Assembly: GCA_039621445.1 (NCBI GenBank)
Contig: CP154954.1
Location: 15,271,805 to 15,335,804 of the forward strand
Source of the DNA: Euglena gracilis
Taxonomy: Eukaryota
Direction of reading: 5' to 3'
DNA length: 64,000 nucleotides
Position numbers and translations under genes: made by a program. Positions 30,101 through 33,100 of this stretch are shown here, piece after piece (within the stretch, counting starts at the first letter, position 1; every line of letters begins with the position of its first letter). The notes beneath the pieces are model-generated. The model was given only the letters and a program-made list of their open reading frames with translations, had not been told where the DNA came from and did no database searches.

Positions 30101-33100
30101 TCACACCTCCTCAAACAGGGGGTGCATATCCTTCATCTTGGACTTTGTACCAGCAGAGTGTCATCGTGCGCCAGTTGAATGCAAAAAAAAACATAAAAAA
30201 CAATTGCAAAATGAAAACGTGCAAAATGAGAATGAAAACAGATTTATTGAATTAGGGGGAAAGCACAGAAAAAGTCCATCAGCGAGCCTGTCAGTCATCT
30301 GTGTGGGCTGTGTCTGGGCTATATGAGGTTGTGTGTCTGTGTTTGTAAAGCCTGTGTGGATCAACGTGTGTGTGTGTGTGTGTGTGTGTGTGTGTGTGTG
30401 TCGTGTGTTTTGTGGAAGCCACCCTGAACCCGGTCCATTTGTTCGCCAACCATCACCACAACGTAAGGGTCGGTGGATATGTAGTCTGAGCTTCGGAAAC
30501 CGTGGGCACAGTGGACCGTCACGACAAGTCGGCCTGACGGGGTGCGGAGGAAGAAGGGAACGTCAGGAAACCCAATCCCCAAGAAAGGCGAACAAGAGAG
30601 CTTGAATCCTGGTAAACAGGGGGGGGGGGGGGTGGGGTGGGGGTCAGGATAGTGGCCATGATTCGAGAACGTGCCAGGCAGTTTAAAGTGAAAATGTGGT
30701 TAAAAAAATGTCCATTTGAATGAATGGGAAATGGATCGTCCCATTACAAATCACCACCATCCCCTCCCTCGGGTCAGCATTCCAAAAAAAAAACCACCAA
30801 AAAATGGCTTCCCGGCACAACAAATAAGCACTAGCAATGTCCCTGTGTGCATGCCTGCATGTGTGTTTGTGTGTGCCCCCTCGCGCGTGTTGTGGGTGTG
30901 GAAGGTGGGGACATACACACCCACATAGGGTCGCACGAAAGGCTTTGCCCGTAGCCGCACGCCATCCAAATGGGAGGCATATGTGAAGCACCGAAGAATC
31001 GGATAGCGAGCGAAAACTGCGGTAGAAAAACACAGCATGGAGCCATCATCACTGCAGACTGGCTTTGGGAAGAAGCCGATCCATATGGATGACCTCGAGG
31101 CACAGCATGCCAGACCGACAACGAGGGTGAGGTACACTGCCAGGATGAAGTTCAGCATCACCCAACCGGGCAGGATGAGCGCAAGGAGGAAGCAGAGGGT
31201 GAAGAAGACGAGGGACAGTACCAGGCTTCCTTTTTACCAACCTGGGGGGGAGGGGGTGTGCCTTTTGCGATGGGGTGCCTGCCAAGAGCAGGCACCCCCC
31301 CCCCAGAGTCTGCTTTGAACCCCGGTCCCTGCCGACCCAGGCAAATTTCCTTTGAAAATGGATATTTTCGGGCCCCTGGCATATTCCGCGCCGGGGGTGT
31401 GCTTTAGAATTAAAGTGCCCCACCCCCCTGGCTGCCCATACAGGGGTTTCTTTAAGACCGGGGGGGTCGCTGAGCTCTTATCTCTTTAGAGTAAGAGCGA
31501 AGCTTACCACTGGCGAAACCCCCCCCCTCGCCCCCCCCCCTCCCCACCCCCCCCCCCGGGTCGGGGCCACCAGGAGAACCGACGGATTATCACCATGATC
31601 CCGGCCCCGTTCCCAAAAATTTTTTTTCAGTCGCGAGCGACTGGATTTCTAGTTTCCGAATCACCTGGGTTTGACCCCCAACTCCCCGCCAGGCCCGAGT
31701 TATTCACGCGCGAAGAGGTCCAAACTGGGTAGGATCGGCCCGCCCCCCCCCTGGATAAGCCCCCCCCCTTTGGACTCTGCCATTTCGGCCAAAAAAATGT
31801 CAAATTTCAAAATATCTCCAAAATGAAGCCAAATCAAAGGAAATGTCCGGAGACCTAAATTGAAGCCCTTGGAACGCTCTATCTACTGGGATTTTGGTTT
31901 CCCCGCAACTCACCGCCTGGCCCGAGATACGGGCGTTTTTTGGCCATTTTAGGCCATTTTTGGCCATTTTGCGCACTTTTTCCACCGTCCGACTTAGCCG
32001 TTTTCGGCCAAAAAAGTCGGAAAAAATCGAAAAAAAATTTTGCCCGAAACGATGTTTTTTGGCCTCCCGGACCCGGAAAAACTGTTTTTGAGCCGAAAAC
32101 GAGCGTTTTTCGACCCGCCAGCGCCCCGTTTTGGGCTGCCGACCCATCATTGACTTTGGGTCAAAACCGGGTCAAAAAAGTCGAAAAAAATCGAAATAAA
32201 ATTTTTGCCCGAAACGATGTTTTTTGGCCTCCCGGACCCGGAAAAACTGTTTTTGAGCCGAAAATGAGCGTTTTTCGACCCGCCAACGCCCCGTTTCTGG
32301 CACAAAACCCATGGATTTCAGGCAAAAGAGCTCCATGGAGTGGCCGGTATGTATGGAGGGGTCAATGAAGGGGTGGGTGCGCGCTTATTAAGAGCTCAGC
32401 ACTATTCAAAACCTGGTCCCCCCCACCCACCCACCCCCTGGGCCCCCCCCCCGGGGGGTCCCGGGCGACCCACAGAAAATGGCCGAAAAATCGCGAAAAG
32501 TGCTAAAAATAGCACTTTTCGGCGCCAAAAAGTATATCCCACCCCCCTCCGGGGGGACCTCCCCTGGGGGGGCTTGGCCAGACCCACCCACCCTACCCCC
32601 CCCCGGGGGTCCACGACTAAAAAAACCCCTATGCCCATAGCACTCACCTGTGAAAACTGTGCGCACTTCCTGTATAAAAAAAAAAGAAGCCTGGACAGGA
32701 CGCTGGAGCGGGGGTGCTGCCAGGTGGCGAGGGACAGGAAGCGGTCAATGATCCGCCAGTTCAGCCACGCGGTGCTGACCATCACCCTGGGGTGTGGCGG
32801 AACGCATGGGAATGCCAGATACATCGTATGGGTGTGCTGCAGTGGTCAACAGCGCAGTGTCCAAGTGAGTGCGGCTCACACCTGGGCTGTGAAACCTGCA
32901 GCCCAATAAATGTTTCCCAATCCCGAAAGAAGCAAAAGCCCAAAATACCAAATACCAGAATTTTCGTCAACCCAAAAAGCTTAATCTCCTGTCAAAAAAG
33001 ATAGAGCAGACACCTTAAAAGAGGTTACCACTGGGAAAATTAAAAGTGTGTGTTTCAAATGTGTGAAGCATTCATGAACTTGCACTGAACTAGTTTGCAG

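Follow-up and report, generated by a model that had tools for sequence, protein, structure and literature searches.

Where the nonconventional introns of euglenids come from, and why they are cut 3 nt before one conserved triplet and 5 nt after another, has been open since the 1990s, and the hypothesis that they derive from MITEs (miniature transposable elements bounded by inverted repeats) has stood without an identified transposon. We took up this question at a single locus of Euglena gracilis, a stretch of 64,000 nucleotides on contig CP154954.1 (assembly GCA_039621445.1, positions 15,271,805 to 15,335,804 of the forward strand). We refer to this whole stretch as the window and count all coordinates from its first letter. 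An earlier note, made from the sequence alone, had singled out one intron in the window as a MITE of the hAT type and had claimed that splicing removes the element plus exactly one 8-bp target site duplication (TSD). The intron, I16 of a gene that encodes a C2-domain membrane protein, is referred to here as the focal intron. Our analysis makes it likely that a MITE inserted into a coding exon of this gene and is now a nonconventional intron, removed together with exactly one copy of its TSD. The locus offers an element family with intronic and nonintronic copies, a fixed 8-bp TSD, and an arithmetic reason (3 + 5 = 8) for splicing that leaves no scar.

The host gene model was built by mapping two proteins on the window, namely, P0001 (eukprot EG_transcript_7506, a transcript-derived protein of E. 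gracilis and the sole match to a query with the downstream exon) and the C terminus of its paralogue P0002. Borders were placed by protein alignment and by reading the sequence, not by RNA reads. The resulting model of 23 exons has no internal stop and is identical to P0001 at 476 of 507 residues and to P0002 at 436 of 572. Its nonconventional introns are I5, I11, I13, I16 (focal), I19, and I22. The features of the gene and of the focal intron are as follows.

28166..59534, minus strand: host gene, membrane protein with a C2 domain; 23 exons, 580 codons, 16 GT-AG and 6 nonconventional introns
32697..32786, minus strand: exon 16; matches P0001 349-378 at 29 of 30 residues
32694..32701, minus strand: TSD copy 1 of the focal element, minus-strand GTCCTGTC; 5 nt kept in the mRNA, then 3 nt that form the N3 spacer of the intron
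31217..32696, minus strand: focal nonconventional intron I16; 1480 nt, equal to the 1472-nt element plus 8; GTC CAG ... CTG GTACT | G
31222..32693, no strand assigned: outer element with terminal inverted repeats (TIRs), CAGGCTTC family; aligned end to end with 22918-23223
32680..32693, no strand assigned: TIR arm at the 5' end of the focal intron; inverted-repeat pair and RNA duplex energy
31222..31235, no strand assigned: TIR arm at the 3' end of the focal intron; inverted-repeat pair and RNA duplex energy
32632..32639, no strand assigned: TSD TGCCCATA of the nested element, right copy, 8/8
31441..32631, no strand assigned: nested second element with ends CAGGGGTTTCTTTA / TAGGGGTTTTTTTA; 1191 bp, interior a high-copy repeat
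31433..31440, no strand assigned: TSD TGCCCATA of the nested element, left copy, 8/8
31214..31221, minus strand: TSD copy 2 of the focal element, minus-strand GTACTGTC; 5 nt that form the N5 spacer of the intron, then 3 nt that open exon 17
31116..31216, minus strand: exon 17; starts at P0001 residue 379 and is followed by a 99-nt GT-AG intron

On the minus strand, the coding frame is split as RSSVL|SLVFF, and the insertion reads GTCCTGTC (32701..32694), CAGGCTTC (32693..32686), GAAGCCTG (31229..31222), and GTACTGTC (31221..31214). The direct repeat is matched at 7 of 8 positions, with the mismatch at position 3, and the inverted arms (31221-31235 and 32680-32694) extend over 15 nt, 14 of which are paired (93%), which is longer than the earlier note had seen. 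The register that begins 3 nt before CAG and ends 5 nt after CTG runs from 32696 to 31217 and leaves 32697 and 31216 as the flanking exon bases; the latter, a G, gives the downstream exon a purine as its first base. The removed length is then the element plus 8 nt, which is the length of the TSD. Seven positions of the junction yield an identical mRNA because CTGTC plus one C is common to both sides, and GT-AG and GC-AG are absent at all of these equivalent positions, the register that starts with GT ending in CT. Folding of the two intron ends gave an RNA duplex of -27.9 kcal/mol, compared with -14.7 +/- 3.3 in shuffled sequences, none of which (0 of 500) was as low. Thus, the TIR ends and the 8-bp duplication that the earlier note had described around this junction are where it placed them, and its exon bases, its sliding by a few nucleotides, and its count of one element plus one TSD are borne out as well. 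It had also put the single mismatch in the intronic part, which is true of TSD copy 2 if the 3 + 5 register is taken. Both versions of the TSD carry a valine codon at the mismatch (GTC and GTA), so the protein is uninformative on which copy mutated.

Deleting the element plus 8 nt in silico left an open minus-strand frame of 48 + 102 codons that reads ...RSS|VLSLVFF... across the junction. P0001 is contiguous over this point (residues 378|379); its continuity from exon 16 to exon 17 implies a message without the 1480 nt. Moreover, all three aligned homologues (P0001, the paralogue P0002, and the homologue P0003) are ungapped over the junction. The segment is therefore best read as a real intron that is absent from the transcript-derived protein, a reading that this protein-level comparison supports. 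Other parts of the same proteins are informative about the gene downstream. The TH-rich tail of P0001 is the translated (CA)n run of nonconventional intron I19 (30149-30429, minus strand), and since this tail is encoded within I19, that transcript retains I19. P0002 and P0003 go on into the C2 domain, which is encoded further downstream in the window. When single exons were searched with Pfam, exon 19 gave a C2 match below threshold, and no domain was found in exons 16 and 17. A likeness of one exon to the PRT_C domain had been an early guess; it was unsupported and was dropped. An Rfam scan of 27000-34000 gave no match.

The focal intron is composite. A second element with its own perfect TSD lies inside the first and had gone unseen in the earlier note. 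When this nested element and one of its TSD copies are subtracted, the outer element is 273 bp long and can be aligned end to end with a sibling at 22918-23223 (identity at 186 of the 246 aligned columns; 333 columns in total). The flanks of the sibling differ from those of the focal copy, and the alignment passes through the insertion site of the nested element, which is uninterrupted in the sibling. A second copy with different flanks and its own duplication indicates a real MITE family. The MITE-like character proposed by the earlier note is thus supported: the outer element is a nonautonomous TIR/TSD element of a MITE family with a second copy in the window. A six-frame search for the C-terminal motif of hAT transposases had no match in the focal intron, whose stop-to-stop frames (up to 213 codons) were not scanned with Pfam. 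The interior of the nested element (31457-32448) is repeated, partly in tandem, at 39153-45150 and 54693-55430. In one DNA run, bins of this interior were thousands of times deeper than single-copy bins, pointing to a very high-copy genomic repeat.

The focal intron and the element nested in it are two of eight elements with 8-bp duplications in the window. We searched all 285 CAG..CTG pairs of the 64 kb that were 40-6000 bp apart and had ends complementary at no fewer than 10 of 12 positions (>=10/12). Six of these pairs had flanking 8-mers identical at 7 or 8 of 8 positions (>=7/8) in the exact register, and no pair stood at 6/8. Nine misregistered controls gave 0 cases (seven controls) or 1 case (two controls), and among 100 dinucleotide shuffles, 90 gave 0 cases and 10 gave 1. 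Two more clean elements (298-794 and 31441-32631) were found once starts of TAG, CAA, or TAA were allowed. It is important to note that looser TIR cutoffs lost the signal (9/12, 23 pairs versus 8-20 in controls; 8/12, 54 versus 34-76), and only the >=10/12 cutoff was used. The six elements outside the focal intron are as follows (no strand is assigned).

298..794: element CAAGCACCTCTG, 12/12 inverted, 8-bp TSD GTCGCCAC/GTTGCCAC; no open frame spans it
6587..8376: element CAGGCACCTATAG, 13/13 inverted, perfect 8-bp TSD GTTGGTTT
10855..11545: element CAGGCAAGGACAG, 13/13 inverted, perfect 8-bp TSD CCCGTGGG
22918..23223: sibling of the outer element, 306 bp; TSD GTGCCAAG/GTGCCAAA at 22910-22917 and 23224-23231; crossed by no open frame
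27513..28148: element CAGGCTTCGATATAAGG / CAGGGTTCGATATAAGG, TSD GGGCTCCC/GGGCCCCC; presumably in the 3' untranslated region of the host gene
52909..53862: element CAGGCTTT..., perfect 8-bp TSD CTCACCAC; within conventional intron I2

Across the eight elements, 60 of 64 flank positions were identical at a repeat length (k) of 8, and no other length from 4 to 12 was comparable, the best being 7/9. Six of the eight start with CAGGC and four with CAGGCTT, and three further elements have CAGGCTTY ends in common with the focal family. The motif CAGGCTTY occurs 20 times in the window (5.41 +/- 2.31 expected), a count reached in 0 of 100 shuffles; when the remaining CAGGCTTY sites were paired up, no additional element with a duplication was found in the window. 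Several of the elements lie outside coding sequence. For the element at 27513-28148, the TSD begins 9 nt past the modelled stop codon (28168..28166) and the element 17 nt past it, hence its presumed place in the 3' untranslated region, and those at 6587-8376 and 10855-11545 are crossed only by frames not judged to be coding. Since copies outside exons keep the duplication, the repeat marks insertion and not splicing. In three elements (298-794, 6587-8376, and 10855-11545), each end is followed on its inner side by tandem repeats with a unit of about 10 bp, inverted between the two ends (GCCCAGCATC, GGCCATTTTA, and CCGGTGGGAT types), and the interiors of these elements are alike in pieces.

How do these insertions relate to the way in which nonconventional introns are cut? 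Knock-in mutagenesis has defined the code of nonconventional introns as 5'-N3CDG-/-CH'GN5-6|R (PMC12501133). The focal intron, N3-CAG..CTG-N5|G, fits this code, purine included, in agreement with the nonconventional type assigned to it in the earlier note. The same note held that any new insertion into an exon would be excised from RNA. This is too wide: under the published code, the downstream exon must also open with a purine, a base that corresponds to position 6 of the duplicated 8-mer. Each of the host gene's six nonconventional introns reads N3-CA(G/T)...(C/A)TG-N5 followed by a purine, with I5 (CAT/ATG) falling outside the strict code, and all six remove their core plus 8 nt, a sum that is unaffected by sliding of the junction. 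The ends of I22 are of the same type as those of the focal family.

28193..28814, minus strand: predicted nonconventional intron I22, CCC CAGGCTTTTTT...AAGAAGCCTG ACCTC | A; duplication decayed, 3/8

Excision of I22 gives ...LDDV|TPP..., which resembles the C terminus of the paralogue, ...LEDLTPP. Two other introns of the gene have repeats of their own. The flanks of I13 (34573-35107, minus strand) agree at 7 of 9 positions for a repeat length of 9 and at 1 of 8 for a length of 8, which may point to a duplication of 9 bp or to one end being displaced by 1 nt. On either side of the GT-AG intron I14 (34497..33401) stands one copy of a perfect 8-nt direct repeat, AGGTGTGC (33395-33402 and 34492-34499, minus strand), which provides the AG|GT context of the donor and the AG of the acceptor; inverted ends were not seen. 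I14 could be a conventional intron that was also born from an insertion with an 8-bp duplication.

We propose the following course of events. A 273-bp nonautonomous cut-and-paste transposon with CAGGCTTC...GAAGCCTG ends would have landed in a coding exon of the C2-domain membrane protein gene, duplicating the 8-bp target GTCCTGTC, and this element would later have received an insertion in its turn, a second element of 1191 bp, similar in general type and with an 8-bp duplication of its own. The inverted ends would pair in the pre-mRNA and bring the two junctions together, and the nonconventional machinery would cut 3 nt upstream of CAG and 5 nt downstream of CTG, before a purine. Because 3 + 5 = 8 is the length of the TSD, the removed piece equals the element plus exactly one duplication, and the mRNA would regain its pre-insertion sequence. 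The insertion thus probably created the focal intron, and the spacing rule and the 8-bp duplication appear to be causally matched. The 3/5 spacing rule with its genetic test and the circular excision products are taken from the literature; removal independent of the spliceosome, with a circular product, is cited in a 2024 review (PMC11282704). A broader proposal, which we put at slightly under an even chance, is that the nonconventional introns of euglenids as a class descend from one TIR superfamily with 8-bp TSDs, probably hAT-like, and that the 3- and 5-nt spacers exist to sum to the TSD. If true, nonconventional splicing would be an RNA-level "precise excision" matched to the staggered cut of the transposase, and insertions into exons would be almost neutral, so that the ∼72% share of nonconventional introns in E. 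agilis would be explained.

Several observations weigh against this account and leave room for other histories of the focal intron. Its removal is seen at the protein level, and P0001 could stem from an allele or copy without the insertion. The insertion allele might accordingly be an unspliced null, with the matching transcript coming from the other allele or from a near-identical copy that lacks the element. The residues at which P0001 departs from the window exons (e.g., AIV versus ALI) are in keeping with this, and in two raw RNA runs, exon depth was ∼1 to 3 and the focal junction was not among the 15 of 1099 read joints listed. These reads were mapped on 23850-43849, the joint table is mostly repeats, and one run, labelled "RNA?," carries unspliced pieces such as 30593-30949, so that this run is no evidence of splicing. 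We nevertheless consider a null allele improbable: the element has every feature of the experimentally defined code, including the purine, all other exons are intact in an open frame of 580 codons, and E. gracilis splices foreign nonconventional introns that have been knocked into another exon (PMC12501133). Further, the identity of the outer element to its sibling is 76%, which implies that the family is not young, and the in-register identity of the flanking 8-mers in the six nonconventional introns is 7, 3, 1, 1, 1, and 1 of 8. Only the focal intron retains a duplication; the other five are at chance level, including I22 with its CAGGCTT ends. The loss of repeats in these five introns fits a decay of unconstrained spacers in older introns but equally allows other origins. 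Another possible source of the focal intron is a staggered double-strand break whose repair took up filler DNA, with no transposase involved, as proposed for a recently gained gapC intron with 8-nt repeats (PMC4770533); on this view, the inverted ends would have been shaped later by selection for splicing. The five repeatless introns would suit it. For the focal intron we think it very improbable, because the same ends with the same 8-bp spacing occur at eight unrelated sites, some of them nonexonic and beyond the reach of splicing selection, because a homologous second copy has different flanks, and because the end motif is enriched about fourfold. The suggestion that the repeat and the inverted ends arose by chance or as a by-product of splicing signals, with no mobile element behind them, can draw on the paired ends that nonconventional introns always have and on the frequency of short junction repeats (in E. 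agilis, 84.4% of the introns count as "slidable"; PMC12501133). This is hardly credible here: a 7/8 match in the exact register has a calculated probability of ∼4 in 10,000 per intron, shuffled sequences yielded 0 to 1 case where 6 were observed, and a sibling copy exists.

The superfamily to which the element belongs is a separate matter. An 8-bp duplication with short TIRs that start with CAG, TAG, or CAA is the classic picture of hAT transposons, and the TIR ends of this superfamily follow the motif YARNG. The hAT label of the earlier note thus has the CAG start of the focal element and the 8-bp TSD on its side, and the ends of the nested element (CAGGGG/TAGGGG) match YARNG. Ends of the CAGGC/CAAGC type, CAGGC in the focal family, tell against the label, since they mismatch the motif at position 5. 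No open reading frame (ORF) for a transposase and no hAT C-terminal motif were found in the window, where a six-frame motif scan gave 3 matches, none of them convincing, and a Pfam search of nine long frames and of P0001 returned only C2H2 fingers below threshold (62212-63036). An 8-bp TSD is a property of hAT elements, and a target preference of nTnnnnAn is cited for Hermes (PMC10368747). The duplications in the window follow this preference weakly, agreeing with it at 8 of the 16 positions (four of the eight have T at position 2, and four have A at position 7; binomial p=0.027 versus 25%); the excess is small but in the right direction. Some Mutator-like elements, as well as P, Merlin, Zisupton, and Novosib, also make duplications of 8 bp or 8 to 9 bp. 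A TIR transposon that leaves 8-bp duplications but stems from one of the non-hAT superfamilies, or from a group specific to euglenids, is a real contender, with a chance that falls visibly short of even. The missing transposase, position 5 of the focal ends, and the weak target preference speak for it, and the classic duplication and end picture, the nested ends, the direction of the target excess, and the subterminal short repeats of three elements speak against it. That the transposase was of the hAT superfamily we consider about evenly balanced. The frame that contains the C2H2 fingers is long and C2H2-like below the Pfam threshold (62212-63999, plus strand), is broken by two adjacent stops and one more, and may be a decayed mobile-element gene.

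How far does the focal intron resemble what is already known? Like the euglenid nonconventional introns described so far (Nomura et al. 2025, PMC12501133; Milanowski et al. 2014, PMC3935182; Milanowski et al. 2016, PMC4770533), it is non-GT-AG, with CAG at +4..+6, CTG at -8..-6, paired ends, and a purine after the junction, and, again like them, it belongs to a gene in which introns of the conventional and the nonconventional kind occur together. The proposal of a MITE-like origin dates from 2013, when no transposable element had been identified in euglenid genomes (PMC3935182), and the 2024 review describes TIRs (CAG/CTG at +4..6 / -8..-6), TSD-like repeats, and a MITE-like origin (PMC11282704). 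In the portions of these accounts available to us, N3 + N5 is not equated with the length of a duplication and no superfamily is named. Unlike the published introns, the locus described here has a concrete transposon family, a nonexonic sibling, a fixed 8-bp TSD at eight elements, and a nested insertion. The closest published case is intron 4 of gapC in E. agilis ACOI 323, a nonconventional intron that, like ours, has eight-nucleotide junction repeats and that is a recent gain, being absent in other strains (PMC4770533). It differs in that its authors read it as double-strand-break repair and that no related copies are reported in the available text (PMC4770533). Within the literature covered (most subscription journals and supplements lay outside it), we found no paper that equates 3 + 5 with an 8-bp TSD, names hAT, or shows nonintronic siblings. 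What we did not find in print is thus the link of 3 + 5 = 8 to the TSD and the concrete family, whereas the MITE origin, the TSD-like repeats, and the 3/5 spacing were known. With such a family in hand, the transposon-origin hypothesis becomes testable genome-wide, and the kind of transposase to seek is indicated.

Outside euglenids, the obvious parallel is with introners, spliceosomal introns of transposon origin that occur in Micromonas, Aureococcus, dinoflagellates, Fritillaria, and others (PMC11282704; Huff et al. 2016, cited there). As in introners, a DNA transposon sits in an exon, its ends and TSD set the junctions, and removal is in frame and scarless. Introners depend on the spliceosome and on GT-AG or tolerated variants, whereas the focal intron follows the structure-guided code of Euglena without GT-AG. 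Moreover, the introner duplication supplies AG|GT, while the focal duplication is split 5 + 3 at either end. In its workings the focal intron therefore resembles an introner without belonging to that class, which is defined by spliceosomal splicing at GT-AG-type sites; if our reading of it is true, it would represent an introner-type system independent of spliceosomal consensus sites. A further parallel is found among hAT elements such as Ac/Ds and Hermes, whose short inverted ends start with CAG or TAG. Giroux et al. in 1994 are said to have described the removal by splicing of Ac/Ds insertions from maize exons. Ds is taken out of RNA at cryptic spliceosomal sites, as a rule imprecisely. The focal element shares with Ac/Ds and Hermes the 8-bp TSD, the short inverted ends starting with CAG, and a nonautonomous state, though no hAT transposase was found in the window.

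Some further features of the window lie away from the focal intron. Two CAGGCTTC ends at 38406 and 45338, 6.9 kb apart and complementary at 17 of 20 positions, bracket exon 10 and intron I9. Their complementarity extends outward (7 of 8 bases), which places CAGGCTTC internally in a longer inverted repeat at these sites. The sole match of a tRNA scan with ARAGORN, tRNA-Gly(CCC) at 41367-41453 (minus strand), falls in conventional intron I9, in a repeat region rich in G/C runs and far from the focal intron. Long simple repeats of the (CA)n/(TG)n, (GGGT)n, and (TA)n types occur at 9327-9475, 23720-23832, and about 55650-56150, the one at 23720-23832 being (GGGT)n.

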